From Candidatus Omnitrophota bacterium (GTDB lineage Bacteria > Omnitrophota > Gorgyraeia > B26-G9), in NCBI GenBank assembly GCA_018895275.1, contig JAHIOQ010000051.1, positions 46,409 through 110,408 of the forward strand: a stretch of 64,000 nucleotides of DNA, written 5' to 3'. The notes under the pieces are model-generated. The model was not told the DNA's origin. It was given only the letters and a program-made list of their open reading frames with translations, and ran no database searches. Below, one piece after another: positions 38,068 to 63,085 of the stretch; within the stretch, counting starts at the first letter, position 1, and each line of letters begins with the position of its first letter. The position numbers and the translations under genes were made by a program.

Positions 38068-38094
38068 TATTAATTAAATAATTTTAAAAAGACT

Positions 38095-38730: not shown

Positions 38731-39005
38731 AATGTAGACTCAAATATCCTTTAGCTACTAAGTCACAAAGGCTCTAAAAATACAAACAGATAAGATATTT
38801 CCATTTTATTCCTCTCACAAAGTTCACCAAGCACACAGAGAAATCAAATTACTCCATTGATAACTCTTTTTATTCCGTTTTCAATATTTCTCTGTGGACT
38901 TTGCCCGCTAAGTATTTCTCTGCGATTGCCCGCAGCTAGGTCTCGCCATGTTTTTTGGCGGATGCCCTCTGTGAGAGACTATTAAGCTGCCGCTATTTCC
39001 TTCTT

Positions 39006-39052
39006 GCCTTGGTGCCTTCGTGGCTAATTTATCCGCCAAAAGTCAAAAAACC
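39006..39052. repeat. 47-nt repeat element CCTTGGTGCCTTCGTGGCTAATTTATCCGCCAAAAGTCAAAA containing the 13-nt motif
   Basis: It is near-identical to 28547-28594 and similar to 11509-11565. It contains TTGACT on the minus strand and overlaps the exosortase stop codon. Confidence 0.5.
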
Positions 39053-43255: not shown

Positions 43256-43278
43256 CGTGTACTCTCTTTACCAAAAAC

Positions 43279-44795: not shown

Positions 44796-44844
44796 TTTTA
44801 AAATCTCCTAACCGTGTAATTCACGATTTGTTGCAAAAAATATT

Positions 44845-45984: not shown

Positions 45985-47099
45985 CGAAATCCGTTTATTA
46001 TTGCTTTTACTATTCTTTCCGCGGCATGGCCGTCACCGTAAGGATTTACGGACTTAGCCATTTTATCATATGCGGATTTAGAAAAAAGCAGTTTTTTTGC
46101 TTCCGCGACTATCCTTTCACTATTCATTCCTACCAGGCGCGCTACCCCAGAATCCACTCCTTCCGGGCGCTCGGTAACTTCACGCATTACCAGAATAGGC
46201 TTACCAAATGCCGGCGCCTCTTCCTGCACTCCGCCCGAATCCGTAAGAGCAAAATAGCAGTTTTTCAAAACGTAAACAAATGATTCGTAATCCAAGGGGC
46301 TCAACAGATGAATATTACGCCTGTTATTAAGCAATTTCTGCACCGGCTTTTGAACATTCGGATTAAGATGCACGGGGTAAATGATCTCCACGTCCTTAAA
46401 AGCGGAAATTTCTTTTAATGCCCGGCAAATCGACAATAACGACCCGCCAAAACTTTCCCGTCTGTGTGCAGTAACCAAAATAACCTTTTTATTTTTAAAA
46501 TCAATTTTTCTCAATTGTTTATTTTTAACTGGATAATCTTTGCCGGCTATCGCATATATGGCGTCAATAACGGTATTACCGGTCAAATAAATCTTTTTTT
46601 TATCTATCCCTTCTTTTAATAAATTTTCCCTTGCCCGTTTTGTCGGCGCAAAATGCAAGTCAGCAACCACAGTTATAAGGCAACGATTAATCTCTTCCGG
46701 GAAAGGACGATATTTATCATGGGTACGCAGTCCCGCTTCCACATGCCCCACGGAAATTTTTAAATAAAAGGCGCAAAGACTGGCAATAAACGCGGTCGTT
46801 GTATCTCCTTCCACAAGCATTAAATCCGGTCTTTCTTTTTCCAAAACCTTTGCTAATCTCTCCATGCAGCGGCTGGACACATCAAAAAGAGTCTGATTTT
46901 TAAGCATAATATCCAAATCATAATCCGGCTTTATCTGAAAGAACTCCAGAAACTGATCAACCATTACCCGGTGCTGGCCGGTAAGAACCACTTTTGAGAT
47001 TATTTTTGAGTTATGCTTTTCCAGTTCCTTTATAACCGGAGCCAGTTTTATAACCTCAGGACGCGTGCCGAGTACGGTTATAATTTTGATCTTACGCAT
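45981..47099 (-). CDS. wecB: UDP-N-acetylglucosamine 2-epimerase (non-hydrolysing)
   Basis: KIITVLGTRPEVIKLAPV and HVEAGLRT motifs. Confidence 0.85.
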   Translation of the reverse strand: MRKIKIITVLGTRPEVIKLAPVIKELEKHNSKIISKVVLTGQHRVMVDQFLEFFQIKPDYDLDIMLKNQTLFDVSSRCMERLAKVLEKERPDLMLVEGDTTTAFIASLCAFYLKISVGHVEAGLRTHDKYRPFPEEINRCLITVVADLHFAPTKRARENLLKEGIDKKKIYLTGNTVIDAIYAIAGKDYPVKNKQLRKIDFKNKKVILVTAHRRESFGGSLLSICRALKEISAFKDVEIIYPVHLNPNVQKPVQKLLNNRRNIHLLSPLDYESFVYVLKNCYFALTDSGGVQEEAPAFGKPILVMREVTERPEGVDSGVARLVGMNSERIVAEAKKLLFSKSAYDKMAKSVNPYGDGHAAERIVKAIINGFR

Positions 47100-48324
47100 A
47101 TAATCTCCTATCGGTAATCTTTTTTATTTCCTTATTGTAAAGTAATTCAATTTCTCCGGCAACCCTCTCCCACGAATAATTCTCTAAAATAAATTGTCTG
47201 CATTTCTTTCCAAACTCCGCCAAATCATTCGTGCGTTTTACAAAACTAATGATCCCTTGAGCGATATCTCTCGGGCTTGTTCCGGCAAAGATTAAACTCT
47301 CATCAAAACGGCTTAAGATTTCCAAAGAACCTCCCGTGGGTGTGCTTAATACCGGCAACCCTGATGATAATCCTTCCAAAGCAACCAATCCGAACCATTC
47401 ATCCTGCTCTGAAGGTAAAATAAAAATATCGGCTGCCTGGTAATAATCAGATATCATTTTAAAATCAACAAAACCCAATAATTCTACCTTTTCCTCCAAT
47501 CCTTCCTTGCTAATTAAACGCTTTAATTCCTTTTTTAAAAATCCGTCCCCCAATATTAACAGAAAAATGCGCGGAATCTCTTCTGAAATAATAGGCATCG
47601 CAAGGATTAGATTTTCCAATCCCATCCGCGCAACAAGTCTTCGTGCGGTTAACAATATTAATTTATTATCCGGAAGATTGAGCTTATTTCTCAAAATAGT
47701 CTTATCCAACAATGGACTAAAATTACTTGAATCCACCCCGCCGGGTATTAATATTATTTTCTCAGAACTATGAAGATAAGTATCCACAATATATCTTTTG
47801 CTAAAATTACTTAAAACGATAATCCTATCCGCAGCCTTAAGCGACATACATTCAACATGTTTGACGAGCAAGAAAATCAGTTCGTTCAACAATGGGAAGG
47901 CATACCTCTTTTTTTTACTCTGGATCAAAATATCTTTATATGCCGACGAATGAAACGTATAAATTCGCGGTATATTTTTTATTTTAAACAAGAGATTTAT
48001 TCCGTAAGCAGGAAATATCGAATGAAAATTAATAACGTCAAATTCGATTTTTTTTACTAATTTAGAGAATAACCGTCTCCCATTGATTATGCTTAAAATA
48101 AAACGCCTGATATACACCAAGTTACCCGAAATACCCTCATCATATCGATAAACCTTCATTCCTTCTATAACTTCTTCATCAGGCGCGTCTTTTTTCATTT
48201 TTACCGTTATTACATATACATCATGCCCTTTTTTTATCAGCTCTTTCCCTAAATTATAAACATAAGAATGCATACCTCCTATGCCGTCAGGATAAAAAGA
48301 AAAAGTCACCATTAAAATTTTCAT
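47092..48324 (-). CDS. family 4 (GT-B) glycosyltransferase
   Basis: It has an N-terminal GT4 domain and the C-terminal EQDEWFGLVALEGLSSGLPVL motif. Confidence 0.8.
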   Translation of the reverse strand: MKILMVTFSFYPDGIGGMHSYVYNLGKELIKKGHDVYVITVKMKKDAPDEEVIEGMKVYRYDEGISGNLVYIRRFILSIINGRRLFSKLVKKIEFDVINFHSIFPAYGINLLFKIKNIPRIYTFHSSAYKDILIQSKKKRYAFPLLNELIFLLVKHVECMSLKAADRIIVLSNFSKRYIVDTYLHSSEKIILIPGGVDSSNFSPLLDKTILRNKLNLPDNKLILLTARRLVARMGLENLILAMPIISEEIPRIFLLILGDGFLKKELKRLISKEGLEEKVELLGFVDFKMISDYYQAADIFILPSEQDEWFGLVALEGLSSGLPVLSTPTGGSLEILSRFDESLIFAGTSPRDIAQGIISFVKRTNDLAEFGKKCRQFILENYSWERVAGEIELLYNKEIKKITDRRLYA

Positions 48325-48393
48325 CTGTTAATAATCACCCCTTAAAATCCAGAATAAAACTATGCGTATTTATTTAACATTCTTAAATTACTC

Positions 48394-50598
48394 TTACTGC
48401 CCGGACCAACTCAGCTTAGCTGTATATTCAATTCCTTCTATATTATTATCCCATCCATCCCAGGTTGTTACAATTATTCCCTTACATTCCTCGTTGTCTT
48501 TTACAATCCTTATCCAATTCTTGATGTTTTTCTTATCCTTCCATCCAGTGACTAAATAACTAAAGCCTTTAGATTTAAAACAATCCGGAGTATTTTTCAT
48601 TTTATTCATGTGATCATTTGAATCAAACCACCAAGTCATAAGAATAATATCTTTTGAGATTAAATTTATAGCGTTACAGGATTTGCCCGGCAAGCCGCCA
48701 TAATGCATTTGAAAATTATTTTTACCTCCGGTATGCCATGGATTAAACATATCATCCCATACCATCATTTTGACATTTGAATCTATAGTGTGTATATAAT
48801 CATTTAGTTTATTTATGTCTTCGGATAGTAGTTTGTCAAGCGTCATATTTCTTTTTTTACATCTTGAATCCCGGCCTATACCATATATGTCATCGTGTCC
48901 TATAGCTATATAATTCGGTTTTAAAAGATGAATAATATCATTTACTGTTTTAAAAAAGATTTTATATGTTCTCGGCTCAGAAGGACAGTAAGGGGTCATC
49001 CAGGTAGCGGGATGGAATCTTAAAACAAAATCATAACTGATCAATACCGGCTCATTTTCATTAATCTTCCCTGTTTCTAATCTTTCTATTCTCGCAGGTC
49101 TATTATAATTAACAAAATAAGGATGTTTTATTTCTCCATCAAACACTCTATAATCTTTGCCTTCTGTATAGATTTTAGTCTTCGCTGAATCCGTGATACT
49201 AATATTTGAAGACTCCGTTCTTATAACATTCACCAATTCGCCATTCATTCTCTTCAGTTTAAATTCGTCAAGCCAGACTGTTCCGTAGCCATCAATGATG
49301 GACGCCCCAATGTATATTTTAGCAGTATCCGGCCGGGTTACAAAATTAAATTCGAGTTTTTCCCATGATGTGTTTGCATATTGAAGCGGCAGATAATTCT
49401 CCACCAGGAAATTACCACTCCTATCATATTGGAAAATCCGTATCGCAAAACCTCTATCGACAGCGGTGTTTACCTCTCTTTTCTTTGCGTAAAAACTAAG
49501 CGTATAGGCCGTGTCCCGATCAACCATGATCAATTTTGACTGCAAAGTATTGCTGGAAATATTAAGCGGAGAAGGGACATTAATCATTACTGAACAACGG
49601 CCCTCGTAGGCCGAAGTTTTATCCCTGCACCAATCGTTTCTTCCATATTCGTTACCAAAAGTCCATCCCGCAGGTATTCCAGCCACTCCCCCTATTTCAA
49701 AGCCGGAATTTTCCAGGAAGACTTCGGAGGATTTTACAGGCACAGCCATATTATTTATCCATTTAAACGGCTCATCCTGTACCCAAATACCTTCTGCGGC
49801 ATGCGGATCTTTTTGTAAGATAGTTAAAGCAACACCAAAACTCTGTAGTTCTGGTATCGGTTCTATATGTCTTTCCCTACAATAAGCAAATAATTCCTGC
49901 AAAAAAGAACTATTTTCCCGCCCGGGCTGCAAGTTGTCTTTTTCTAATTTCCAAAATGCCTGCTCACTGAAAATAACCGTATTAATTCTTAAGCCGGCAA
50001 TAAAATCCAGCTTTTCTTTTAATTCATTCAAACTCCCTTGCAAATCTAACATGTGAACCGCTCTTATAGCCGTATCAGGGTAATCTACAATCTTAACGCC
50101 TGGGATGCTGATTACATTTCCATTTACTTCCATTAGCTGGAGAAGCGCCTGAACCCCGTAGAATACTCCTGCGGAAGTATGAGCTGTTATAACTATAGAT
50201 GAAGGAAAAACTTCTAAAACATATCCTTCTTTTCCAATCTTATCTGTTATGCGTAGTTCTTTTTTTTCTTTAAAATTATCTTTAGACATAGCAAGTATAA
50301 TGCGCCGGGTTTGAAACTTCGAATTAATATCTGTAATCATTAATTTATTATTTAATTTTTCATTAAGTAATTTTGCAGAAAATATATTTTCCTTATTAGA
50401 TGTATTAACCGATATATCCCAATTTTTATCTACTTTTACTTTAAAGTTTTTAAATTCCATATGTTGAGGCTGTGGAACGATAGAAATATTCTTCTCTGAC
50501 AAACCCGATTGTAAGGTTAGCGCCAAAAGAAAAAATATATTAGCAACGCAAAACATGAAAAGAAATTTATAATTAAACTTCGTTGTAAACTTTTTCAT
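48394..50598 (-). CDS. secreted glycoside hydrolase family 20-like domain protein
   Basis: It has a signal peptide. IVPQPQHMEF resembles the GH20 N-terminal domain start. RAVHMLDLQGS...ELFAYCRERHIEPIPELQ resembles the GH20 catalytic TIM-barrel beginning. A canonical HxGGDE motif is not evident. Confidence 0.4.
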   Translation of the reverse strand: MKKFTTKFNYKFLFMFCVANIFFLLALTLQSGLSEKNISIVPQPQHMEFKNFKVKVDKNWDISVNTSNKENIFSAKLLNEKLNNKLMITDINSKFQTRRIILAMSKDNFKEKKELRITDKIGKEGYVLEVFPSSIVITAHTSAGVFYGVQALLQLMEVNGNVISIPGVKIVDYPDTAIRAVHMLDLQGSLNELKEKLDFIAGLRINTVIFSEQAFWKLEKDNLQPGRENSSFLQELFAYCRERHIEPIPELQSFGVALTILQKDPHAAEGIWVQDEPFKWINNMAVPVKSSEVFLENSGFEIGGVAGIPAGWTFGNEYGRNDWCRDKTSAYEGRCSVMINVPSPLNISSNTLQSKLIMVDRDTAYTLSFYAKKREVNTAVDRGFAIRIFQYDRSGNFLVENYLPLQYANTSWEKLEFNFVTRPDTAKIYIGASIIDGYGTVWLDEFKLKRMNGELVNVIRTESSNISITDSAKTKIYTEGKDYRVFDGEIKHPYFVNYNRPARIERLETGKINENEPVLISYDFVLRFHPATWMTPYCPSEPRTYKIFFKTVNDIIHLLKPNYIAIGHDDIYGIGRDSRCKKRNMTLDKLLSEDINKLNDYIHTIDSNVKMMVWDDMFNPWHTGGKNNFQMHYGGLPGKSCNAINLISKDIILMTWWFDSNDHMNKMKNTPDCFKSKGFSYLVTGWKDKKNIKNWIRIVKDNEECKGIIVTTWDGWDNNIEGIEYTAKLSWSGQ

Positions 50599-51703
50599 AT
50601 TCCTTAACCATTCTCTCTAAATTAAAATATTCTTCTACGCGCCTCCGTCCAGCTTCTCCCATCTGTTTTGCTTCTTCCTTGTTTTTCAATAACCTAACAA
50701 TGCCATCGGCTAAGGCCTTAACATCCTTAATAGGAACTAATATTCCCGTTACCCCGTCAACTACTAACTCGGGAACGCCGCCCACATTAAAGCAAACCAT
50801 GGGTTTACTCATCGCCATTGCTTCGACAATAGTCACAGGTACTCCTTCACTAAGCGAGGAAAGAGCGGCAACATCTAAATCTGCCAGTATTCGCGCTGTA
50901 TCTTTTCTATAGCCGGCAAAAATAACCTGTTCCTCTAACCCGAGTTCCCGGCATAATGCCCCGTGTTTTTCTTTCAACGGGCCGTCACCGACAATTAAAA
51001 ATTTTGTCAGGGGAACAGCTTTTAACACTTCCACAGCCGCAGATAAAAAGTATTGGTGGGCCTTTTGCTCATTTAACCTCGCTATTACGCCAACCAATGG
51101 AATCTCGGAGCCTAATCCAAATTCTTTGCGAACCTCACCGATACTTATCCCTTTTCTATAATTTTCCAGATCTATACCTGCATAAATAACTTTAGTTTTG
51201 TAAGAATCCGCATTTTCCTTCGCTATAAGGTTGCCTGCTATGTCTTTGGAAACGGCGACTATCTTTTTCGCATATTTTACTGTAACTATTCTATCTATAT
51301 ACATATATGATTGTTTCTTCCAATGAGAGGAGCTGAGGTCACTTATCGATAAATGACGCGTAAAAATAAAAGGAATACCAGCAAACTTAGCTGCGATACA
51401 GCCAAAAAAGTCCAAGCGGGTTTGATGGGAATGAACGATGGAAATTTTTTTAAGTTTAATTATTCGGACCAACCTATTAATCGCGCCCATATCAAATTTA
51501 CTCTTTGTTTCAAAAGAAATAACCTCCGCTCCGTTCTTCCGGAACTCTTCACTCAATACTCCGTCATGCGGGTAAGCTATTTTAAATTCAAACCGGAATT
51601 TATTAATTTTCTTTAATAGGCACAGCAATAAAATCTCTGCCCCGCCCACAGCTTTCTTCTGTTCTACATCACTAATTAAATGAAGAACTTTAACGATACT
51701 CAT
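50573..51703 (-). CDS. family 4 (GT-B) glycosyltransferase
   Basis: C-terminal EGVPVTIVEAMAMSKPMV and GVPELVVDGVTG motifs. Confidence 0.8.
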   Translation of the reverse strand: MSIVKVLHLISDVEQKKAVGGAEILLLCLLKKINKFRFEFKIAYPHDGVLSEEFRKNGAEVISFETKSKFDMGAINRLVRIIKLKKISIVHSHQTRLDFFGCIAAKFAGIPFIFTRHLSISDLSSSHWKKQSYMYIDRIVTVKYAKKIVAVSKDIAGNLIAKENADSYKTKVIYAGIDLENYRKGISIGEVRKEFGLGSEIPLVGVIARLNEQKAHQYFLSAAVEVLKAVPLTKFLIVGDGPLKEKHGALCRELGLEEQVIFAGYRKDTARILADLDVAALSSLSEGVPVTIVEAMAMSKPMVCFNVGGVPELVVDGVTGILVPIKDVKALADGIVRLLKNKEEAKQMGEAGRRRVEEYFNLERMVKEYEKVYNEV

Positions 51704-51707
51704 AAGT

Positions 51708-53102
51708 TTACCTATTCTCCTTCTTGGATAAGTGCCTCAGCATAACAGCCATCGGGACTATTACCCAAAACTGAAGAATTCGTAAATAAGTTATAAACAT
51801 GCCTCCCACCAAACAAATAATTAAGGATACCTGGAATCCAGAAGTTATATCAGCAAGCAAAAAATCTTTTTTTTCTAAAAATTTCTTTTTTGCTTGCCTG
51901 AAATATTTAAAACTCCATATAAATAAAAACAGCATAAAAATCAGTCCACCTATACCCATTTCGGCGGCAATCAAAATAAATGTATTATGCGCATCCAGTA
52001 ATTTATGTGGACGATTACCCGCTCCAAAAGATTCTTTCAAAAATTCCCACTGGGATATCCCCCATCCCACTCCGCGGAACGGGTTTTTCAAAGCCATTTC
52101 AATTCCCGCCTTAGCAGCTATTACGCGTTCATTAATAGCCGGATCACTCAAATTCAAAATACTACCGACTCTTTCCCAATATATTGAGGGGATAATGAGT
52201 CCAACTATTATAAGAAGCAAAACAATAAAAATAATGCTTGCAATAAAGTTACTTTTTTTCCAAAATCTACCCCCTACAGTAAAAAGGAGGACAAATAATA
52301 ACATCACAAATCCACCCCGAGAATAGGTTAAAGCAATACCGGTAATGATAAATAACGTCATAATAAAAAACAAAATTCTTAAATTTAATTTACGATAGTG
52401 CAACAATAAACTTATTACTACCGGCAGGGGGATAATTGACTCAAAGGCAAAATAATTAGGATCATGAGATAGCCCTTTTATTCTGAGCATCATATCTTGT
52501 TGATATCCGATACCATGAAAATACTGGTAAATACCTATAAGTGATAGTGTTACGGTTATAAAACATAAAAACCATGTTAAAAAAATAACCTCTTTGCGTG
52601 TTTTTATTATATTTACAATAGCAAAATACAAGATTATCGCTTTGGGTGCGAGTTCAAAAAAATATGGCAAGCTAAAATCCGGCCATTTAAAGCAGGACAA
52701 TAGCGCTATGGAAAAAAAACTTAATACCAGTAAATTCTGTGGTGCTTTAACCAATTTAAAATCGCGGTATATTATGGCATGGAATAACCAAATTAATAAA
52801 ACTAAAAATGCTAAAGACTTTGCCGGACTTATTACCGCTAATTCACGAAACCAAAATGTCGGATGGAAGAATATTCCGATTAAAAAAACCAACAGTCCTA
52901 CGTAAAGTTTGAAAAAGATAATAACGCTTAAAGCTATACCAAAAAAAATACCAACTGAAATATACAACGGGAAATATAAAATGCTCAGTCCAATCAGAAA
53001 AGAAATACAACTGATAAGGATGATAACCAATGCGGGAAGTTCAATGATCGGACTTTCTTCTAAAAAATTATTTTCTTCCACTTCAAGGATATTCTTTTTC
53101 AT
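51708..53102 (-). CDS. O-antigen ligase/polymerase (Wzy-like) family membrane protein
   Basis: 464 aa with about 12 TM helices and a large loop containing an R...G motif typical of the Wzy_C family. Confidence 0.55.
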   Translation of the reverse strand: MKKNILEVEENNFLEESPIIELPALVIILISCISFLIGLSILYFPLYISVGIFFGIALSVIIFFKLYVGLLVFLIGIFFHPTFWFRELAVISPAKSLAFLVLLIWLFHAIIYRDFKLVKAPQNLLVLSFFSIALLSCFKWPDFSLPYFFELAPKAIILYFAIVNIIKTRKEVIFLTWFLCFITVTLSLIGIYQYFHGIGYQQDMMLRIKGLSHDPNYFAFESIIPLPVVISLLLHYRKLNLRILFFIMTLFIITGIALTYSRGGFVMLLFVLLFTVGGRFWKKSNFIASIIFIVLLLIIVGLIIPSIYWERVGSILNLSDPAINERVIAAKAGIEMALKNPFRGVGWGISQWEFLKESFGAGNRPHKLLDAHNTFILIAAEMGIGGLIFMLFLFIWSFKYFRQAKKKFLEKKDFLLADITSGFQVSLIICLVGGMFITYLRILQFWVIVPMAVMLRHLSKKENR

Positions 53103-53111
53103 CTTTTTGTC

Positions 53112-54056
53112 TCATTTCGGCAGATTCAGCGCCCAGCGCAGTACAGCATTACTGCGCATAAATATATTTTTGACTTTACTCTTAATTGTTCGCGAGCAGA
53201 AGACATAAACAAAAGGAGCAATAAGCTGGATACAAACGTTAACCAAAATCAACATTATTCGATGCCGGATAACCGCCTTCATTCCATACTGCTTTTTAAA
53301 AAATATCTCTATTGCCTTATGCATCTCTATCAGTGTCTTAAAAGGAATTTGTTCTGCGCTTTTGTTCCAAAAATGAATTATTTGTGCCGTTGGCAAAAAA
53401 TAGATCTTCCAGCCCTTCTTCTTTGTTCTATAGCACGTATCGACATCTTCTCCATACATAAAAAACGCTTCGTCAAACAACAATCCAATATCATCCAGGA
53501 TACCAGCTCTGATCATCATACATGCACCGGTAATCGCATTTACTTCTCTCATATCATTATGATCCCAATATGACATTAGATAATGTCCAAAAATCCTGCT
53601 TTGGGGAAATCTTTTATAAAGTGAAGTTAAAACACAAAACTGGGTAAATGGCGTATTATAATTCCGGGCACATTCGTAACGAATTCTCCCTTCCTGGTCC
53701 ACAATTTTAGGACCTACCATACCTGCCTCTTTGTGTTCTTTCAGAAAATTATACATTTTCAGAATACTATCTTTTAAAACAATAGTATCGGGATTCAATA
53801 GTAAAATAAATTCTCCTTTACTCTCCTTTATCGCTTGGTTATTTGCTTTGGCAAAACCAATATTTTCTTTGTTTTCAATTAAAATTACTTGCGAAAATTT
53901 GTTTTTTATCATTTCCACGCTAGCATCAATAGAATTATTATCCACTACGATAATTTCAAAGGAAATATTTTTCACCGTATTATAAAGAGAAGCGATACAA
54001 TTCTCCAAATAATTTTTTACATTCCAATTAACTATTATTATAGAAAGGGTTAACAT
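53112..54056 (-). CDS. family 2 glycosyltransferase
   Basis: LSIIIVNWNVKNYL and VVDNNSIDAS motifs. Confidence 0.8.
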   Translation of the reverse strand: MLTLSIIIVNWNVKNYLENCIASLYNTVKNISFEIIVVDNNSIDASVEMIKNKFSQVILIENKENIGFAKANNQAIKESKGEFILLLNPDTIVLKDSILKMYNFLKEHKEAGMVGPKIVDQEGRIRYECARNYNTPFTQFCVLTSLYKRFPQSRIFGHYLMSYWDHNDMREVNAITGACMMIRAGILDDIGLLFDEAFFMYGEDVDTCYRTKKKGWKIYFLPTAQIIHFWNKSAEQIPFKTLIEMHKAIEIFFKKQYGMKAVIRHRIMLILVNVCIQLIAPFVYVFCSRTIKSKVKNIFMRSNAVLRWALNLPK

Positions 54057-55126
54057 TTTTCTGCGATTATTTCGTTTAAGGCTCTCTCAAATTGTTCTGT
54101 AGATTTTTCCCAGGTAAACTGCTTTATATAGTTATACCCTTCTTCAGAAATCCGCTTTAATTTTTCTTCATCATCTAATAAAGATAGTAAGTTTTTTGCT
54201 AAAGCTTCCGGTTCTTTCGGCGAGGAAATCAAAGCAGTTTTACCGGGAATGGTATAGTAAAGGATACCTCCGACATTTGTCGCAACAACCGCGCATTTAC
54301 ATGCCATTGCTTCCATAGGTGGCAGCCCCCATCCTTCTGTCCAGCTGGGGAAAAGAAAAATATCACAGGAACAATATAATTTTCTTAAATCTTCACCTTG
54401 TGGAGCTAAATGAAATTCAGCATATAAAGGGATATCTTTATCTTTATGAGTTCCAAATAAAACTAACTTTATTCCCGAATGTTTCGTTCGGGCAAGTTCA
54501 AACGCCTTTATACCATCCTTTGCTCCTTTCCATTCATAGAGACTATAAAGCATGAGAATTCTTTTATTCTTATTATAAATTTTATTCCCATTATAAAATT
54601 GACCTAAGTTGACTCCATTCGGAACTAAATAAGGCTCCTTTTTATTAAATTTTTCAATCATTAACTCTTTAAGCCATGAAGCAATAACAAGTTGATGAAG
54701 ATTGAATTTATAGGTTTCGTTTACTAAGCTTTCCACACCCATCACAACTTCATAATGTTGAATAAAGTATACTTTTCTGCCCTTTTTAAAATGATATCTA
54801 TTTACATAATATGCTGTCGGCCAGGCAGTAGCAATTACTACGTCCCCATCAGGAATGTATCTTTCGGAAAGAGAAGGAATACCGATAACCGGAACCTCAA
54901 CATTAAACCAATCTATCTTATTGCCTTTTCTCAGATTATCAAAAAAAATTCGTATTTTATGAATATGCATACGCAAATTTATCCATTTCTCTCCGAAATT
55001 CAAGGGAAATAACGGATAAAAGATAAGAACTTTATGCCCCCTTACTTTAAGACGGTTAGCGTACTCAAAAACAACCCTAATACCCCCGCATATTTCCAAA
55101 CATGGGAGAAGAAAAATAATTTTCAT
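54050..55126 (-). CDS. family 4 (GT-B) glycosyltransferase
   Basis: EGWGLPPMEAMACKCAVVATNVGG motif. Confidence 0.8.
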   Translation of the reverse strand: MKIIFLLPCLEICGGIRVVFEYANRLKVRGHKVLIFYPLFPLNFGEKWINLRMHIHKIRIFFDNLRKGNKIDWFNVEVPVIGIPSLSERYIPDGDVVIATAWPTAYYVNRYHFKKGRKVYFIQHYEVVMGVESLVNETYKFNLHQLVIASWLKELMIEKFNKKEPYLVPNGVNLGQFYNGNKIYNKNKRILMLYSLYEWKGAKDGIKAFELARTKHSGIKLVLFGTHKDKDIPLYAEFHLAPQGEDLRKLYCSCDIFLFPSWTEGWGLPPMEAMACKCAVVATNVGGILYYTIPGKTALISSPKEPEALAKNLLSLLDDEEKLKRISEEGYNYIKQFTWEKSTEQFERALNEIIAEKC

Positions 55127-55195
55127 TCTTGTCTTTTAACCTCTCTTCTATTTTTAAAACTTTCTTGCACTTTTTTCGCGATTTAAAATCTTCGT

Positions 55196-56638
55196 TTACA
55201 CAATTTTACTATTCATTAATTGACACCTAATCACCTTTATATCTTCTTTAGAAATCCCCTTTGTCAAAAATAACCCACTTACATAAACACCAATACCTAT
55301 CGCAATAAGCAAAAATAAATTTTTATTCATATTTAAATATAAAATCTCTCCCATCAATACAGCACTAAACAAAGGTTTCAAAAAAAACTTTTTAATCTCA
55401 AGTTTAATTATTTTATTAAATTCTATGTAAGAATAAATGAGTAGCACAACCTCACTTACAACAGTGGCAAATGCCGCACCTTTCAGACTGAAACGCGGTA
55501 TCAACAGTGCGTTTAAACCAATATTGATTATAGCTGAAAAGGCTACACCCATAGCATATTTTTTTTCTCTATTACAAGCTAATAATGAATTGGCATAAAT
55601 CATACAAATGAAACTGACGACAACATACCAAATTAAAATCCGGAAGGCAATAATTCCTCCATCATATTGCGGGCCATAAAAAAAATCCATGATTGGTTTC
55701 GCTAAAACCATTCCTCCTACTCCCAGAGGCAACCCTAATATAATCATCAACTTAGCAGAGTAAGAGAGTAAAGTTTTTAACTTTTCCATTGATTCTTTAT
55801 AATATTTAGAAATAACTGGAAAAATAGAAATAATATAAATTCCACCGATAAAAAATAAACCCAGTATTATCTTATATGCTGCATTATACAATCCGACCTC
55901 TTTATCGCTTTTCATAAAACTTAACATAACCGTATCAAAATTATTATATATTTGAATCATTAGCCAAGCAAATCCCATAGGAGATGCCTGTTTCAATAAT
56001 TTCCACCAATTCTGCGGATTAAAATTATATTTTATTACCCCAAATTTTTTAATTAAAACATAAAAAAGAAATATACTGGCAATCGCATTACCTGCTAAAA
56101 ACAAATACGGAAGAATCAATACTTGAGCAGAATTTTTCATTACGCCGATTACCAATAAAAAATACACCAAGCATCCTAATACTCTCGCGAATCCAACAAA
56201 TTCCATCCGTTCAATACCTTGGAAACACCATTCAAGTGACAATGCTAAAGGAAATAAAGAAAACCCGTAAAAAATTATCAAAAATTTAACATCAAGTGGT
56301 TTGGGAATCAAAAATACCACTAAAACTAGTAATAAAAAAGATATTGCTGCCAAAAAAAGCCTCAGGGGAATAATATCCCCAACATATATTCGCAAAACAC
56401 CTCTATTTCTTGCTACTTCGCGGGTTCCTAAAGTCATAAGTCCTGAATTGGAAATGAGCAAGAAATAAGCAAAAATTGCAGAGGCAAAATTAATTCTACC
56501 AAAATTTTCCACCTCTAATATTCTCGCTAAATAAATAGTCGCCAAAAAAGTAATTATTTTGCTTATTATTTCTGTAACCGACAGGGATAAAAAATTTCTT
56601 AAAATTCTTTTTGCCGTTGTCAAAAAAATAGTCTCCAT
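55196..56638 (-). CDS. oligosaccharide flippase (Wzx / MOP superfamily)
   Basis: 480 aa with about 12-14 TM helices and polysaccharide-biosynthesis-protein topology. Confidence 0.7.
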   Translation of the reverse strand: METIFLTTAKRILRNFLSLSVTEIISKIITFLATIYLARILEVENFGRINFASAIFAYFLLISNSGLMTLGTREVARNRGVLRIYVGDIIPLRLFLAAISFLLLVLVVFLIPKPLDVKFLIIFYGFSLFPLALSLEWCFQGIERMEFVGFARVLGCLVYFLLVIGVMKNSAQVLILPYLFLAGNAIASIFLFYVLIKKFGVIKYNFNPQNWWKLLKQASPMGFAWLMIQIYNNFDTVMLSFMKSDKEVGLYNAAYKIILGLFFIGGIYIISIFPVISKYYKESMEKLKTLLSYSAKLMIILGLPLGVGGMVLAKPIMDFFYGPQYDGGIIAFRILIWYVVVSFICMIYANSLLACNREKKYAMGVAFSAIINIGLNALLIPRFSLKGAAFATVVSEVVLLIYSYIEFNKIIKLEIKKFFLKPLFSAVLMGEILYLNMNKNLFLLIAIGIGVYVSGLFLTKGISKEDIKVIRCQLMNSKIV

Positions 56639-56747
56639 TAAAACGATTGCGTTTTATTCAGAATCGTAATTGTTTTATTATTTTTGTATCAAAAATTAGA
56701 ACAGCCACTTTTTGCTAATAAAAATTACATCTCCACTATCGTAAATT

Positions 56748-57704
56748 TTATTTTTTTTTAAAAAAAGTTTCCATATTAATTTTGTACTTGCTTAACATAT
56801 TACATATTAACGCCTTGCAGCATTTTTTTATTTGATTAACCCTCTTAATAAACTGTAAAATAGCGGTGCTGAGCAGGTCTGCCCACACAAGCATATTTCT
56901 CAAAATATTCGGTAACCGTTCGATATTAACTGGAAAATAATTGCAGTACGGGTGAAAAAATCTTGCCCCAGAAGGAATTAATAAGTTCTTAACAATGTTT
57001 TTAAGGGAAATTTGACGGCCTACGCTTATAACAGTATCAGAAATTTTGTCGCCAGGAAGGTAAGTTCTGAAGGGATGATTAGTGACAATTTCAATACCAA
57101 ATATTTGAGCGTATATGGGCAATCTATATTCAAGAAATCCAAGTTCTGGGTTCGTAATTTTAGAGTATTTTTCTAAAAAAATACGAGAAAGAACAACCAC
57201 TATAAATATGCAGAATACAGGATCATGACTATAATTATAATGTTTCTTTATGTAACTTAAAAACTGTAGGTATTTATCTCTTTTTTCTGGAGCTGTTACC
57301 CATTCCCACCCTTGGGCTTCCTTCTCAATTGATCGAACGCCTGATAGAAGAATTTGTCCATGCGGCAGATTAGAAAAAAGCTTCTCTATCGGGGCGAGAA
57401 TTAACATATCCCACTGCACTATAACAATGGAGTCCCAAGGTAAGTATTGACCGCACTGACGATACCACTCCGTGATTAATAAATCACCATTACACCATTT
57501 CCAATATGAGGCGGCATTATACTCAAAAGTATAACAATCATCAAGGTAATCAGTTAATTGAGATATAAATATATCCTTTTGAGCTGGATTTCCTCCATAA
57601 AGACCATAAATATGTATTTTGGGATTGTGCTTTCGTAAAATCTTAAGACGATTTTTGCAAATAAGAGGCTTTTTATAGAACCAGAATAATATAGCTAATT
57701 TCAT
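56748..57704 (-). CDS. hypothetical protein (possibly a glycosyltransferase-like accessory enzyme)
   Basis: It is a 318-aa ORF within the EPS locus with no motif I can name. Confidence 0.3.
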   Translation of the reverse strand: MKLAILFWFYKKPLICKNRLKILRKHNPKIHIYGLYGGNPAQKDIFISQLTDYLDDCYTFEYNAASYWKWCNGDLLITEWYRQCGQYLPWDSIVIVQWDMLILAPIEKLFSNLPHGQILLSGVRSIEKEAQGWEWVTAPEKRDKYLQFLSYIKKHYNYSHDPVFCIFIVVVLSRIFLEKYSKITNPELGFLEYRLPIYAQIFGIEIVTNHPFRTYLPGDKISDTVISVGRQISLKNIVKNLLIPSGARFFHPYCNYFPVNIERLPNILRNMLVWADLLSTAILQFIKRVNQIKKCCKALICNMLSKYKINMETFFKKK

Positions 57705-58022: not shown

Positions 58023-58727
58023 TTACAAATGCCGATGGATATATTCCGGTATATAATATTCCACCTGCGTCAAAATAACCCCGAGTAATTTAGTGTGGAG
58101 ATTTTTGATTTGCTCCTGCGTTCTCCATAGGACCTCACGCCGCGTCTTTCCGGCCTGAACCGTCAATAAAACCCCGTCTACACAGGGCGCCAGAATACGC
58201 GCGTCCGCAAAAGGTATGAGCGCCGGAGTATCGAATAGCACATAATCGAATTCTTTTTCAAGCTCTGCTATTAAATCTTTCATTTTCTGCGAAGCAAGCA
58301 GTTCCGCCGGATGAGCCGGAATCTCACCTGCCGGCACGAGGGTTAAATTATTAAAATATGTTTTTGTCAGGATATTATCCAGTTGAGCCTGTCCCTTAAG
58401 AAATTCGCTCAAGCCGAGGCCCGCCGGAGTATTCAGCAATTTTTCGATAACCGGGAAACGAAAATCCGCGTTAACCAGAACTATCTTCTTTTCTTTCTCT
58501 TCTGCCATGGCCAGCGCCAGGTTCACCGCCGTGATCGACTTGCCTTCCTGCCGATTCGCGCTGGCAATTATCATCGAACGGAAGGTTTCTCCTCCGTTTA
58601 TTGAGTTCAAATATGTACGGATATTGCGGTATTGTTCGAAAATCGTTGAGCCCGGATTATAATAGGCAACGACCCGCGGGTCAATCCCTGTTTCATTTTT
58701 GGAATTTGTAACAAAGACATTAAACAT
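58023..58727 (-). CDS. BY-kinase catalytic domain / CpsD-CapB-like P-loop ATPase (exopolysaccharide tyrosine autokinase)
   Basis: Walker A QEGKSITAVNLA, Walker A' VLVNADFRFP and Walker B VLFDTPA motifs. Confidence 0.75.
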   Translation of the reverse strand: MFNVFVTNSKNETGIDPRVVAYYNPGSTIFEQYRNIRTYLNSINGGETFRSMIIASANRQEGKSITAVNLALAMAEEKEKKIVLVNADFRFPVIEKLLNTPAGLGLSEFLKGQAQLDNILTKTYFNNLTLVPAGEIPAHPAELLASQKMKDLIAELEKEFDYVLFDTPALIPFADARILAPCVDGVLLTVQAGKTRREVLWRTQEQIKNLHTKLLGVILTQVEYYIPEYIHRHL

Positions 58728-58731
58728 AATT

Positions 58732-60333
58732 TTATATCTGGCCTTCCAATTGTTCCCGGATTATTCTTTCCGTTAATTTTTTATCCTGCAGATAAGAACT
58801 TATCGCCGCTATTATAATAAATACCAGTAAAACAAGCGTGGCCAAAATCATCGCCCGGCGCTGTTTTCGCCTTAGCGACACCGCCTCTTCACGCGTAATC
58901 ATTTTTACGGTAGAACCGATAACCGGAACATCGAGAAACCTATGCGCGTCTTCAATATTTCTAAACGAATGGTCACTGAATTCCACTAAAAAGACACATC
59001 CCAATCCGGACAATATCCCCAGAATCAAGGAAACCAGGGCAATAATAAGTTTTTGCGGCTTGGAAGGCTTTAAAGGCAGCCTGCCTTCTTCGATTATTTC
59101 ATAACGCATTCCCTTTTGCTGCACCTCTACCGCATCCAACCGGTTTTCTTCCACCTTAAGCCGCAGCATTTCATAGATATTGCTCGTTACCTTGCTGTCA
59201 CGGCTTAATCGCGCGTAGTCGCGGTCCTGTTCCGGCAGGCGTTCAATCCGCGATTCATAATCATCAACAAGTTTTTTAAGCTGTATGCGCTGTTTTTTGA
59301 GCGCCTCGTTTTTATTCTTAATATCTTTATATTTCTGTTCAATACTACGAAAAAAAAGCGGGTCGGTCTGGAGCGTCTGACTGCCGATAACCTTTTCCGA
59401 CTCCTCTATTATCCTGCGCCGGGTTTCATCAATCCTTAATTCCAGATCAGGTATTTTGGTCGAGCCCGGGTCACTCTGAAGCAGGCTGTAAACCTGCAAT
59501 TGAGTCCCCCTCAAGTCATTGTTCAAAGAATCAATAATCGGGTTTGCCCGCAGCAGCTCATCATTATTGAGAATCACCGGATCCCTTCCCTTCAGCTGGT
59601 CTTCTGTCTTTTTCAGCTCTTCCTCATTCCTTTGCAGCTCCAGCTCTGTGCCCGTCAATGACGTCTGATAATTAATCAGCAAAGACACATTGATATCCAA
59701 CTCCTTACCCGGCATCTGAAAAGGATTTTTTTTTCTATATTCATATAGCGCGTTCTCTGTTTCTTCCAGCTTTTTCTGATAAATCTCCGCCTGGGTTTCC
59801 GCGAATTTAACCCCGGTCAGCGCCAGTTCTTCTTTTTTTTGGATATTGTAGCTTATAAAGCTTTTTACCAGGGTATTCACTAAACGCTGGGCCATCCTCG
59901 GGTCTTTGTCTTCGTATATCACCTCAAATACCTCAGCCGACCGCAAACGCACGTCCGTATGTTTGATAATCCTTCTTACCAGCTTATCCAATTCCAAGGG
60001 ATTTGCCGCCTTTTTGCCCAACCCAACCGCTTCCAGCACCATAACCAGCTGCGGATAATTAAGGATCTTTTGCGTAAGAGTTTTCAATTGCTCTACGAGG
60101 TTATCCGAGGCCATAGCGATATAGGTGGGTTTCATTGACAATGGATTAATAGCCTTTTCCTCCTGTAACAGTATCAGAACAGATGAGGAATAATATTTCG
60201 GCATCAGAAAACTGCCGATTGAGGCGGTAAAAAAGACAATAAGGAAGGGAATGAGAAAATACTTTTTACGATGAAAGAGAATAAATAAATAATCTCTTAT
60301 GGAAACCTGTGATTGGGAGGTAGATTCCTTCAC
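58732..60333 (-). CDS. polysaccharide chain length determinant (Wzz/GumC, PCP family) protein
   Basis: It has N- and C-terminal TM helices flanking a long coiled-coil periplasmic region. It is adjacent to the BY-kinase. Confidence 0.7.
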   Translation of the reverse strand: MKESTSQSQVSIRDYLFILFHRKKYFLIPFLIVFFTASIGSFLMPKYYSSSVLILLQEEKAINPLSMKPTYIAMASDNLVEQLKTLTQKILNYPQLVMVLEAVGLGKKAANPLELDKLVRRIIKHTDVRLRSAEVFEVIYEDKDPRMAQRLVNTLVKSFISYNIQKKEELALTGVKFAETQAEIYQKKLEETENALYEYRKKNPFQMPGKELDINVSLLINYQTSLTGTELELQRNEEELKKTEDQLKGRDPVILNNDELLRANPIIDSLNNDLRGTQLQVYSLLQSDPGSTKIPDLELRIDETRRRIIEESEKVIGSQTLQTDPLFFRSIEQKYKDIKNKNEALKKQRIQLKKLVDDYESRIERLPEQDRDYARLSRDSKVTSNIYEMLRLKVEENRLDAVEVQQKGMRYEIIEEGRLPLKPSKPQKLIIALVSLILGILSGLGCVFLVEFSDHSFRNIEDAHRFLDVPVIGSTVKMITREEAVSLRRKQRRAMILATLVLLVFIIIAAISSYLQDKKLTERIIREQLEGQI

Positions 60334-60344
60334 TGATAATCTTT

Positions 60345-61844
60345 TTACTCCTGTTCGATAGCAACATTAATTTTTTGCCGCAGTATTAGGCTTCTTTTGG
60401 TTAATTCTTCGATTCGCTTTGCTTCCGCTTTGATCACAGCACTCTCTTTATCGATTTCGATAATATGCGGCGTAATAAATACAACCAGTTCCTGTTTGAC
60501 TTTTTCTTTAACGTCATTACGGAAGAACAGCCCGAGAAGCGGAATATCGCCGAGCAGCGGCACCTTGTTAACCGTTGTCTTATTTGAATCTTTTATCAAG
60601 CCGCCCAATATAACCGTATCGGAGTCTTTCACCATCAAAGTCGTGTCCGCCTGGGTCGTATCCACGGCCAAGGCATTATCTACCTCAGGGACACGGCGAG
60701 CTGAGCTGACCTCCGGATGAATCTTCATAATCACAAAGCCGCTTTCGGTAATTGTCGGCGTAACTATCAGTTTAATACCCACATCCAAAAACTTTGTTTC
60801 CGTTGTAATCAATCCGGTATCAACGTCCTTTTGCTGTACGGGATACGGTTCACTGCTGCCGACAAGGATACTCGCTTCTTTTCCGTCCATAACCACGATC
60901 CGCGGCGCGGAAAGCACATCGGTATCAGAGGAGGACTCCAGCATTTCCAGCACGGATTGATAATTCCGGCGGGAAAGCATGCCCACCTGAAAAATTCCGC
61001 CTGTGGTCAAATCCTGCGCAAAACTCCCTTTCAGGTCATACTTGCCTTTTAAGTACTCCCAGTCTATGCCTCTTTTTATATTCTTATCCAAAGTGACCTG
61101 CAGTATCTTTGCTTCGATAAGAACCTGTTTACTCTGGACGTCCCAGCCGCGGATAAGCTCATCGACATTCTCCAGAATAATCGGCGTTGCCCTTATAACC
61201 ACGCTATTCGTGCGTTCATCCGTAAATATCTCTCCCTTTTCCGCAGGAATAACCTGTTGGAGTTTAGTTTTTATATCCGCGGCCTGGGCAAAGATTAAGC
61301 GGTATTTTTTAAGAATCACCTCCAGATCAAGACACTGCACGGCAACCTCAATCTCGGAAATTTTTTCCAGGGTATCGGTTACGATTATCTGGTTGGCCTT
61401 CTCGTTTATTTCCACCCTGCCGCGGGGCGACTTAATCGACAATAAAGCCCGGCGCAAGTCGGACACACTCGCATGCTTTAGACTGTAAACCCTGGTTGTC
61501 GTTTTTGCAAAACGTTCTTCCTGCTGAATATTTTCATAGGAATACACATTAATAATATCCCCGGAACGCTCGTAAAAATAATTATTGGCCTTTAGCACAG
61601 CTTTAAGTGCCGCATCCAGGGAAACGTCCCTCAATACCAGGCTTACGGTTCCGGAGATTCCGTCACTGACCACAAGGTTGATATTGGTTTGTTCGGCAAT
61701 TGATTTTAAGACAGAAACAATATCCGCGTGTTCCGCCTCGATGGAGATAAGCTTTTCCGCGGAGAATACATTTGTGAAAGAGTACGCATAGAGGAAAAAA
61801 ACCGATAGTAAAACGGCACAAAATCCCTTTTTCACTTTCAACAT
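60345..61844 (-). CDS. secretin family outer-membrane channel (GspD/PilQ-like)
   Basis: The C-terminal secretin signature is VILGGLIKD...VNKVPLLGDIPLLGLFFRN...ELVVFITPHII. The N-terminus has an N0-like domain and a signal peptide. Confidence 0.7.
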   Translation of the reverse strand: MLKVKKGFCAVLLSVFFLYAYSFTNVFSAEKLISIEAEHADIVSVLKSIAEQTNINLVVSDGISGTVSLVLRDVSLDAALKAVLKANNYFYERSGDIINVYSYENIQQEERFAKTTTRVYSLKHASVSDLRRALLSIKSPRGRVEINEKANQIIVTDTLEKISEIEVAVQCLDLEVILKKYRLIFAQAADIKTKLQQVIPAEKGEIFTDERTNSVVIRATPIILENVDELIRGWDVQSKQVLIEAKILQVTLDKNIKRGIDWEYLKGKYDLKGSFAQDLTTGGIFQVGMLSRRNYQSVLEMLESSSDTDVLSAPRIVVMDGKEASILVGSSEPYPVQQKDVDTGLITTETKFLDVGIKLIVTPTITESGFVIMKIHPEVSSARRVPEVDNALAVDTTQADTTLMVKDSDTVILGGLIKDSNKTTVNKVPLLGDIPLLGLFFRNDVKEKVKQELVVFITPHIIEIDKESAVIKAEAKRIEELTKRSLILRQKINVAIEQE

Positions 61845-62339: not shown

Positions 62340-62978
62340 TCATCGGTTAACCTTTGTTTTTTTCATCACGCATCCGGCCAAAAGTCCCATGCCCCACAAC
62401 AGCAGGCTTGAAGGCTCAGGGATAACGGCAATAGTCGTGCCGAACGTATCTCCCAATATTTCCGTGAAATTATCCGCTCCGACAAGCGTCGTATCTTTTA
62501 TCGGCGTACCTTCGGTATCAAACCAGATCAAGGTACCGGTTGTTGTATTTAAGGCCTCAAACGTAATCGTCGCAAATGTCCCGCTGCTGTTCAGGGGCGG
62601 ATCAAGTAAACCGACGGCCGCCTGATAATTGATTTCTCCCAGGGTGTTATCAACAGCATTCTCAAAATATTCTCCAAAAGAAAAGTTGGAATGATACGCG
62701 GCATCCGAAATATTCGTATCCGGACCGGTGATTCCGCTTCCGTCCTCGCCCGGGTCTATCACCTTTAAATACGACGGAATGAACTTGATCCAGTTTAAAA
62801 GATTTGTGAACCCCTCCTCCTGCGGATTTTCCAGGACCACATCAACCGTAAACTGCTCTCCCACATCCACATTTTGTTTCGACGGAACAAGCCGTAAATC
62901 AGGCGCGGCATTACTATCCCGCGAAAAACCGATGAGACATACTGCCATTACTATTAAGATAATACCCACGTTCTTCAT
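62340..62978 (-). CDS. PEP-CTERM sorting domain protein
   Basis: The C-terminus AVIPEPSSLLLWGMGLLAGCVMKKTKVNR has the PEP motif, a TM helix and a basic tail. The start is at MKNVGIILIV with a GGGAGG Shine-Dalgarno. Confidence 0.8.
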   Translation of the reverse strand: MKNVGIILIVMAVCLIGFSRDSNAAPDLRLVPSKQNVDVGEQFTVDVVLENPQEEGFTNLLNWIKFIPSYLKVIDPGEDGSGITGPDTNISDAAYHSNFSFGEYFENAVDNTLGEINYQAAVGLLDPPLNSSGTFATITFEALNTTTGTLIWFDTEGTPIKDTTLVGADNFTEILGDTFGTTIAVIPEPSSLLLWGMGLLAGCVMKKTKVNR

Positions 62979-63085
62979 AATTATCCTCCCTCTCGTAAAT
63001 ATGGTATTGTCAAAACTTAACCACAGAAGCACGGAAATATGGAAAAGGTCAATTCACTACTCTTTTTATTTTTAACACCCCTTTA

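Follow-up and report, generated by a model that had tools for sequence, protein, structure and literature searches.

A secretin gene at the head of a co-polymerase/tyrosine kinase operon in an Omnitrophota exosortase island, a candidate stand-in for a Wza-type exporter

The stretch of DNA analysed here (the window, 64,000 nt from contig JAHIOQ010000051.1 of a Candidatus Omnitrophota bacterium) contains a three-gene operon encoding a secretin, a polysaccharide co-polymerase (PCP) and a bacterial tyrosine kinase (BY-kinase). The operon heads an XrtA-like Wzx/Wzy-exosortase island of ~25 kb for the production of exopolysaccharide (EPS), and the secretin gene is found where the gene of a Wza-type outer-membrane polysaccharide export (OPX) protein is expected. 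With middling confidence, we regard the secretin as the dedicated outer-membrane exit of this EPS/exosortase module, in the place of an OPX protein, through which polysaccharide would leave with or without proteins. Replacement of the OPX protein is the most economical reading, because a dedicated secretin paralogue is coupled to the PCP and the BY-kinase and the module encodes no other outer-membrane exporter. As to its origin, the best reading of the phylogeny is that the secretin arose by duplication of GspD of the phylum's own type II secretion system (T2SS) and was then recruited to head a PCP-2b/BY-kinase operon. Wzx/Wzy-PCP export in diderm bacteria is thought to be based on OPX proteins of the Wza type, whereas the loci studied here suggest that an entire candidate phylum has a secretin at this position. 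The genes of the operon and its predicted promoter are as follows.

61844..60345, minus strand: secretin gene, 499 aa, first gene of the three-gene operon
60333..58732, minus strand: PCP gene, 533 aa, GTG start codon
58727..58023, minus strand: BY-kinase gene, 234 aa
61880..61907, minus strand: putative sigma-70-like promoter (TTGACT, 16 nt, TATAAT; 11/12 consensus match)

The three open reading frames (ORFs), their coordinates on the minus strand and the 11-nt gap between the first two had been proposed in an earlier reading of the sequence (the original prediction) and were borne out by an ORF check. The PCP and BY-kinase genes are separated by 4 nt. The 11-nt gap hinges on the GTG start codon of the PCP at 60333, which is backed by N-terminal positions that do not vary among 19 homologues; the deposited annotation of the PCP (L005:11710-13113; L numbers designate loci) is a truncated product of 467 aa without the first transmembrane (TM) segment. 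The sigma-70-like promoter, recognised by its consensus match alone, is located 36 nt 5′ of the secretin ATG. The ribosome-binding site ahead of the secretin start codon is AAGGAGAGGG, and a terminator-like hairpin (62277-62262) ends the upstream PEP-CTERM gene. Judged from this arrangement, the secretin is probably co-transcribed with the PCP and the BY-kinase and translationally coupled to them. A sigma-54 promoter was considered as well and discarded, as the pattern TGGCAC-N5-TTGCW with at most two mismatches gave 10 matches versus 24.6 expected from shuffled sequences, none of them convincing upstream of the operon. Rfam models at gathering thresholds gave 0 matches in the whole window, including the 5′ region of the operon, and thus no riboswitch or other RNA.

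The protein at the head of the operon had been called a bona fide secretin with an N0 domain, and both parts of that description hold. It matches the Pfam Secretin domain with an E-value of 1.2e-47 (162.1 bits, cutoff 27.5; positions 2-169 of the 169 of the model), Secretin_N in two stretches (76.1 bits) and STN with 30.4 bits, above the cutoff of 28.4, while the match to the GspD N0 model (21.3 bits) is below cutoff. The C-terminal signature VPLLGDIPLLGLFF is present at residues 429-442. The domains expected of the secretin superfamily (PF00263), i.e., a C-terminal barrel domain preceded by N0 and Secretin_N ring domains, are all found, in the following layout.

Signal peptide: N-terminus
N0/STN domain: residues 33-101
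N1 domain: residues 115-172
N3 domain: residues 177-234
Barrel: residues 240-462
C-terminal helix: residues 469-498

An AlphaFold2 model of the monomer (pLDDT 84.8) has three alpha/beta N-domains, beta-strands across residues 240-462 and the C-terminal helix. Foldseek searches with this model return PulD, InvG, GspD, ExeD and PilQ as top matches, with solved secretins at E-values of 2e-25, as well as the N0-N1 crystal structures of XcpQ/GspD; a sequence search of the PDB finds PilQ of Myxococcus xanthus (2.9e-39). The curated families are a different matter. The scores against NCBIfam PilQ (TIGR02515, 267.6 bits, cutoff 284.35) and GspD (TIGR02517, 251.7 bits, equivalog cutoff 351.35) are both below cutoff, so that the protein belongs to neither family by score, nor does it by gene context. 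It does not belong to the OPX/Wza family either (PF02563 Poly_export plus SLBB), since it has no Poly_export match. By its sequence and position, the secretin takes the place of Wza and presumably its function, without being a member of the Wza family. Secretins have a gated beta-barrel architecture with a lumen far wider than that of Wza. For the protein studied here, pore size and gating would be those of its solved homologues.

The second protein of the operon is, on sequence evidence, a PCP-2b-type polysaccharide co-polymerase with its kinase on a separate protein. It scores above cutoff against Pfam GNVR (43.4 bits, cutoff 27.7) and below it against Wzz (22.9 bits, cutoff 25.5). Its best NCBIfam match is the chain length determinant of the XrtA system (TIGR03007, E 9.5e-63, 212.1 bits), below the equivalog cutoff of 278.85. 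Hydropathy predicts TM segments at residues 26-44, 429-447 and 494-512, the first two of which enclose ~384 aa of periplasmic domain, so that the PCP-2 arrangement of two TM helices around a large periplasmic domain with a GNVR region is present, with one extra TM segment. The profile of the PCP family matches the solved octameric PslE (2.4e-18) and Wzc. The BY-kinase has all the features expected of its family: a score above cutoff (TIGR01007, 154.4 bits, cutoff 108.05), the Walker A (ANRQEGKS), A′ (IVLVNADFR) and B (VLFDTP) motifs, and a C-terminal tyrosine cluster, EYYIPEY, with three tyrosines in the last 13 residues. Its score against TIGR03018 (152.7 bits) is below the cutoff of 230.65. 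The closest solved structures are the split kinase CapA/CapB of Staphylococcus aureus (3.3e-26), Wzc and Etk.

No Poly_export/OPX protein was found in Pfam scans of the window ORFs of at least 150 aa (4083-64000). Six-frame phmmer and jackhmmer searches with E. coli Wza likewise gave 0 matches at E≤10, both in the 64-kb window and in 87 related loci with a total length of ~1.1 Mb. This negative result carries weight because the same Wza query picks up the OPX gene of an unrelated metagenome locus, L115. A control search with Wzc gave 74 matches and finds the BY-kinase and the PCP of the window. On the 82-kb contig examined, the 10 kb upstream contain genes for DNA ligase, radical SAM enzymes, SurE and similar proteins, and no OPX gene. 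The claim of the original prediction that the EPS locus has no Wza/OPX gene is therefore upheld, and an OPX gene just outside the locus, which would have made the secretin a mere T2SS or type IV pilus (T4P) component, is seen neither in these 10 kb nor in the rest of the window. The Wza-type export protein of the XrtA/PEP-CTERM system is missing from the same region. We take TIGR03027 to be the family of this protein. Partners of T2SS and T4P secretins were sought as well. With Omnitrophota Gsp proteins as phmmer queries, no GspC, GspE, GspF, GspG, GspL or GspM was detected in the 64-kb window, and the sole match to the T2SS proteins of locus L044 is a lone N_methyl (pseudopilin-like) gene at 7060-7629 on the minus strand, beside the gene for EF-G. 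There are no PilM, PilN, PilO or PilP genes adjacent to the secretin gene, and no GspC/PilO-like gene in the loci in which the secretin is linked to a PCP.

The linkage of secretin and PCP is widely conserved. Homologues with 46-71% identity to the secretin are found in the same order of secretin, PCP, kinase and Wzx. When GTDB species genomes were scanned with an alignment of secretins, 80 loci were obtained, to which seven loci fetched earlier were added; all were typed by phmmer, and all relatives are metagenome-assembled genomes (MAGs) or metagenome contigs. The PCP gene is directly downstream of the secretin gene in 43 of the 87 loci, followed by the BY-kinase gene wherever the contig continues, and the gap between secretin and PCP has a median of 3 nt (mostly 0-14, range -17 to 186). 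In 19 loci, PilO/GspM-like and GspC-like genes are located directly upstream of the secretin gene instead, and the remaining 25 loci contain distant secretins in other contexts. A reciprocal search of metagenome contigs that started from the PCP found a secretin upstream in 21/21 loci with upstream DNA. In a lone locus with a distant PCP (L115, 22% identity), a Wza homologue occupies the secretin position. The PCP-linked secretin is also present in MAGs labelled Auribacterota and UBP3, other phyla of the PVC group. At least 11 assemblies carry both a PCP-linked and a T2SS-type secretin, the second paralogue either being part of a full T2SS operon or having PilO/GspM and GspC-like genes as neighbours. 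The original prediction had asked whether the secretin is conserved beside PCP/BY-kinase genes, which is the case across the related loci; the loss of this synteny, or a secretin belonging to a pilus or T2SS operon elsewhere, would have spoken against it, and what is observed is a kept linkage with a separate T2SS paralogue in the same genomes. PEP-CTERM genes are found within ~4 kb of 7/40 PCP-linked secretins and of 0/44 other secretin loci (Fisher p=0.004).

Comparison of related contigs further indicates that the secretin travels with the EPS/exosortase module, which is present or absent as a block. In GCA_004196255.1 (L001/L116) the whole block from the secretin to the PEP-CTERM gene is present and syntenic with the window. 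JAHITE01 (L117) has the same flanking genes, with tRNA_bind on one side and the GspK-like, PilZ, transglutaminase and ABC transporter genes on the other, and the island is absent; only an epimerase gene and a gene of 206 aa are found at its site. The island is thus a ~25-kb insertion/deletion unit, bordered by a tRNA_bind remnant on one side and the gene of the GspK-like protein on the other (L117:7664-12682 versus 36613-62200 in the window), and the GspK-like protein does not travel with it. In the scan, the only secretin of the JAHITE01 assembly was of the T2SS type. Separately, in most PCP-linked loci a gene for a REC-GAF-GGDEF diguanylate cyclase abuts or overlaps the secretin start (L002:7777-9774, L003:7990-9996, L007:7963-10011 and ~25 more), which suggests control of these loci by cyclic di-GMP. 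This gene is absent in the subclade of the window itself, i.e., the loci whose secretins have at least ~59% identity to that of the window.

In neighbour-joining (NJ) trees of the secretins, distance-based and computed from 418-428 aligned columns, all PCP-linked sequences fall into a single clade (38/38, bootstrap 88 and 94). Their sister group consists of the secretins of L037 and L044, with a bootstrap of 95. The L044 secretin is part of a complete T2SS operon with the order GspE-F-G, three N_methyl pseudopilin genes and GspK-L-M-C-D, and this sister position to T2SS-operon secretins points to a duplicated T2SS GspD as the source of the operon secretin. PCP-linked and T2SS-type secretins differ by 10 fixed differences and no indels, while 121 positions, those of the barrel and gate motifs among them, are conserved in the two types; the N0 domain has one fixed change, Y89F. 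Adaptive changes of the pore or gate in the PCP-linked clade were considered, but these few differences gave no discriminating signal. Basal to both groups is the secretin of L056, which belongs to a third Omnitrophota clade (bootstrap 100) of ~75 database proteins at ≥58% identity. In all four loci of this clade that were examined, a T2SS-like operon runs directly into exosortase genes.

L056:2751-13898, T2SS-like operon (GspF annotated) followed by exosortase genes
L118:1-21000, the same arrangement (GspG and GspF annotated)
L119:6464-19501, the same arrangement, followed by genes for a TPR protein and a GAF histidine kinase
L120:4650-15977, as L119, with an additional sigma-54 activator

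The operon of the third clade encodes a GspC-PDZ protein, GspG, PilM/N (GspL-like), GspM-like and GspC-like proteins, the secretin, a PDZ protein, GspE and GspF, with GspG annotated in L118 only and GspF in L056 and L118. Downstream are genes for exosortase, EpsI, a Bac_transf priming transferase and two to three PEP-CTERM proteins. The third clade is a direct genomic linkage of a T2SS with an exosortase system, and may be the first genomic link of exosortase cargo to type II secretion, a term that one paper uses loosely for Sec export.

The secretin operon is the proximal end of the island. From 57.7 kb to 36.6 kb, all genes are on the same (minus) strand.

42212..57704, minus strand: glycan assembly cassette (Pfam, NCBIfam)
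56748-57704, minus strand: ORF of 318 aa between the BY-kinase and Wzx genes
56638..55196, minus strand: Wzx flippase (Pfam), followed by glycosyltransferases of families 4 (GT4) and 2 (GT2)
53102..51708, minus strand: Wzy_C polymerase/ligase-like protein (Pfam)
44795..43947, minus strand: XrtA-system polysaccharide deacetylase (TIGR03006, 286.6 bits, above the cutoff of 276.2)
43255..42212, minus strand: WecA-like priming transferase (NCBIfam WecA-like match)
38095..41545, minus strand: exosortase core (Pfam, NCBIfam)
41545..40706, minus strand: multi-TM protein without assigned family
40709..39855, minus strand: TPR protein of 284 aa with a lipoprotein-like N-terminus
39855..39043, minus strand: exosortase, best match XrtA (Pfam Exosortase_EpsH 8.2e-54; TIGR02602 151.9 bits, above 105.55)
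38730..38095, minus strand: EpsI (Pfam DUF3485; EpsI_fam 67 bits, above 42.8)
36613..37989, minus strand: distal island end, with a secreted 220-aa protein without assigned family and a PEP-CTERM protein
37311..36613, minus strand: this PEP-CTERM protein (Pfam 26.5 bits; TIGR02595 27.4 bits, cutoff 16; both above cutoff)
62340..63032, minus strand: PEP-CTERM protein that also has a cohesin-like domain, adjoining the secretin operon on its upstream side (Pfam Cohesin 27.4 bits, above cutoff)

After the Wzy_C gene, the cassette continues with GT4, a protein resembling glycoside hydrolase family 20, GT4, UDP-GlcNAc 2-epimerase, GT2, deacetylase, methyltransferase and the WecA-like transferase. 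The 318-aa ORF has no Pfam or NCBIfam match and no counterpart at this position in the related loci with gene tables that were examined. Its GC content sets the cassette apart, with 0.32-0.40 at 38000-58000 compared to 0.43-0.45 in the secretin-PCP-kinase genes and 0.43-0.52 elsewhere, and its gene content varies among related loci. Both would agree with a serotype-like glycan cassette that can be exchanged while the export and exosortase ends on either side stay conserved. The exosortase scores 164.9 bits against the XrtA-specific model TIGR03109, below the cutoff of 208, XrtA still being its best match. The cohesin-like protein has a PEP-CTERM match below cutoff (18.3 bits), yet its IPEPSSLLLWGMGLLAGCVMKKTK tail is evident. 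The putative distal boundary of the island was placed by aligning its gene order to that of L116 and L117. Exosortase, EpsI and PEP-CTERM substrates are thus all encoded within the EPS locus and, judged by gene content, the island is a complete XrtA-like Wzx/Wzy system apart from the OPX protein.

Several known systems share features with this island. Like the Wza-Wzc systems for group 1 capsule and colanic acid in E. coli, it is Wzx/Wzy-dependent and has the exporter gene directly upstream of the PCP/kinase (wza-wzb-wzc in E. coli), and its PCP and BY-kinase are homologous to Wzc. The exporter, however, is unrelated to Wza, having neither Poly_export nor SLBB domains, not being a lipoprotein and belonging to the secretin family. 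Furthermore, PCP and kinase are split into two polypeptides, like CapA/CapB, and no gene for a Wzb phosphatase is adjacent. With GspD, including the proteins of the Omnitrophota T2SS operons L044 and L037, the secretin shares the order N0-N1-N3-secretin, the 121 conserved positions, a sister lineage and a fold matching PulD, GspD and ExeD. It differs in being encoded outside a T2SS operon with no GspC/E/F/G/L/M nearby, in scoring below the GspD cutoff and in having the PCP as its fixed neighbour. The XrtA/PEP-CTERM system (Haft 2006, PMC1569441) has in common with the island exosortase, EpsI, deacetylase, chain-length determinant, tyrosine autokinase, PEP-CTERM and TPR proteins, whereas its Wza-type protein was not found at the locus and several members score below equivalog cutoffs. 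A Wza-type protein is present in the crtB locus of a cyanobacterial exosortase system (PMC12188702). GlyGly-CTERM/rhombosortase and MYXO-CTERM/myxosortase combine processing of the tag at the inner membrane with exit through the T2SS secretin, as would match the operons of L056 and L118-L120; the sorting enzyme and the tag are different from those of the island, and no T2SS platform genes accompany the window secretin. Lastly, PilQ and GspD secretins are required for the secretion of slime, an EPS, in filamentous cyanobacteria and Myxococcus (Zuckerman, So & Hoiczyk 2025, PMC12475490). Both that work and the present analysis propose a secretin as conduit for a non-protein polymer, although the slime nozzles employ the housekeeping secretin of a pilus or T2SS, with no genetic link to a PCP or kinase described, and the window has a dedicated paralogue within an EPS operon. 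Among the papers searched on secretins in connection with OPX, PCP, Wzc or exosortase, and on the secretins, exosortases or T2SS of Omnitrophota, none was found that describes such an architecture.

On this basis, a route of export can be proposed. The WecA-like transferase would start repeat units on undecaprenyl phosphate, Wzx would flip them over the inner membrane and the Wzy-like protein would polymerise them. The PCP oligomer, controlled by autophosphorylation of the kinase, would form a periplasmic cage that contacts the N0-N1-N3 rings of the secretin, which would take the place of the Wza octamer. The growing polymer would then enter the secretin vestibule and leave via the gate, and PEP-CTERM proteins cleaved by the exosortase would probably use this wide pore as well, either linked to the glycan or next to it. 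The contact between PCP and secretin, the identity of the cargo and the opening of the gate are all inferred. A bolder version, which we put forward tentatively and think doubtful, is that of a hybrid 'type II/Wzy' machine in Omnitrophota and neighbouring PVC bacteria, in which the PCP/BY-kinase cage replaces the platform of GspC and pseudopilus, the exosortase joins PEP-CTERM proteins to nascent polysaccharide, and folded conjugates exit through the secretin. If true, it would explain why the narrow Wza was swapped and would identify the outer-membrane route of the PEP-CTERM/exosortase system.

Exit through a secretin, as foreseen in the original prediction, is supported by the conserved synteny, the clade and the absence of an OPX gene at the locus; on its either/or of polysaccharide or PEP-CTERM proteins, the evidence points both ways. 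Tight coupling to the PCP and the lack of an OPX gene in the locus speak for polysaccharide. PEP-CTERM proteins are favoured by the descent from a T2SS secretin, by a gate and an N0 domain that have stayed unchanged and by the T2SS-exosortase operons, which make protein cargo a more serious option than had been implied. Conjugates of protein and glycan would be in line with both sets of observations and would make sense of the change from a narrow Wza to a wide secretin. If the secretin were a port for proteins only, it would be an alternative gate for a T2SS platform encoded elsewhere that exports PEP-CTERM proteins, the glycan would leave by another way and the linkage to the PCP would reflect co-regulation of matrix components. 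We think this unlikely, though several points favour it: the GspD-derived secretin with Y89F as the only fixed change in N0, the T2SS-exosortase-PEP-CTERM operons in all four third-clade loci, the enrichment of PEP-CTERM genes near PCP-linked secretins, and the assemblies with both secretin types, in which a T2SS platform is available. Other C-terminal tags also make use of the T2SS, as experiments have shown for GlyGly-CTERM (PMC11980579, PMC12889589) and MYXO-CTERM (PMC12475490, citing Sah 2020). Such a port would leave a complete Wzx/Wzy/PCP/kinase pathway without an outer-membrane exporter in the locus, and offers no reason for the secretin to be coupled in 43 loci to the PCP and not to the exosortase, ~20 kb away in the window; nor does the island encode a GspC-like adaptor.

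The converse, a substitute for OPX that passes the glycan alone while PEP-CTERM proteins stay cell-bound or take another route, shares the operon and synteny evidence of the exit favoured here and has the published secretin slime nozzles as a precedent (PMC12475490). It is improbable, given that the secretin lineage is repeatedly tied to exosortase/PEP-CTERM genes and that gain or loss affects the island as one unit, the exosortase included. That an ordinary T2SS or T4P secretin has ended up beside the EPS genes by chance, with no functional tie to them, would agree with scores near the PilQ and GspD models and with the unaltered gate region. Synteny and phylogeny effectively refute it, since the linkage is kept in 43 + 21 loci with secretin identity down to ~45%, Auribacterota and UBP3 MAGs among them, the linked secretins share a single clade, the same genomes have a T2SS paralogue of their own and the secretin has its own predicted promoter at the operon head.

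A number of points weigh against the secretin as the shared exit of the island. The proposed PCP-secretin contact would have to bridge a symmetry mismatch, as solved PCPs are octamers and solved secretins 12- to 15-mers. Core and gate motifs are essentially unchanged, so that no adaptation to polysaccharide or to opening without a pseudopilus is visible. In the third clade, the exosortase is tied to a complete T2SS and not to a PCP; the shared feature is then exosortase plus PEP-CTERM genes, which favours protein cargo. An OPX protein could also be encoded elsewhere in the genome, the part examined being an 82-kb contig of a MAG, and the distance-based NJ method is a caveat to the secretin tree.

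The way in which PEP-CTERM proteins cross the outer membrane has been an open question since the system was described in 2006 (PMC1569441), and it was still called unclear in 2025 (PMC12188702). The secretin-PCP operons and the T2SS-exosortase operons are concrete candidate machines for this step. In addition, the operon offers genomic support for the recent and debated claim that secretins carry non-protein polymers (PMC12475490).

Some further genes of the island and its surroundings are worth mentioning. The TPR gene at 39855-40709 overlaps the exosortase start by one base, and its product has weak matches to BamD/YfiO, YbgF and PrsT. T4P pilotins are TPR lipoproteins. By analogy, the TPR protein could assist in secretin assembly. 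Beside the cohesin-like PEP-CTERM protein, a protein encoded at 63302-63988 (minus strand) has dockerin-like and CarboxypepD_reg-like Pfam matches, which are weak and below or near the cutoffs; a cohesin-dockerin surface assembly anchored via the exosortase is possible.

The genes beyond the distal end of the island include the following.

36532..34109, minus strand: GspK-like protein of 807 aa (T2SSK and NF037980 at the N-terminus; long unique C-terminal region)
33748-34092, minus strand: small PilZ-like gene following the GspK-like gene, then transglutaminase and ABC transporter genes

Homologues of the GspK-like protein are found in Omnitrophota only. It was considered as a part of the secretin system and rejected, because the block of GspK-like, PilZ, transglutaminase and ABC transporter genes is kept in L117 without the island and belongs to the backbone. 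Between the transglutaminase and PilZ-like genes, a pair of genes at 32601-33199 (minus strand; 104 and 95 aa) reads by eye as a toxin-antitoxin pair (PemK/MazF-like plus ribbon-helix-helix). Elsewhere in the window, a cluster at 13726-23623 encodes radical SAM proteins, three of which are B12-binding enzymes while one of the other two has a SPASM domain, as well as an amine oxidase-like flavoprotein, a GT2 and a polysaccharide deacetylase; it adjoins rpoN (23977-25425).

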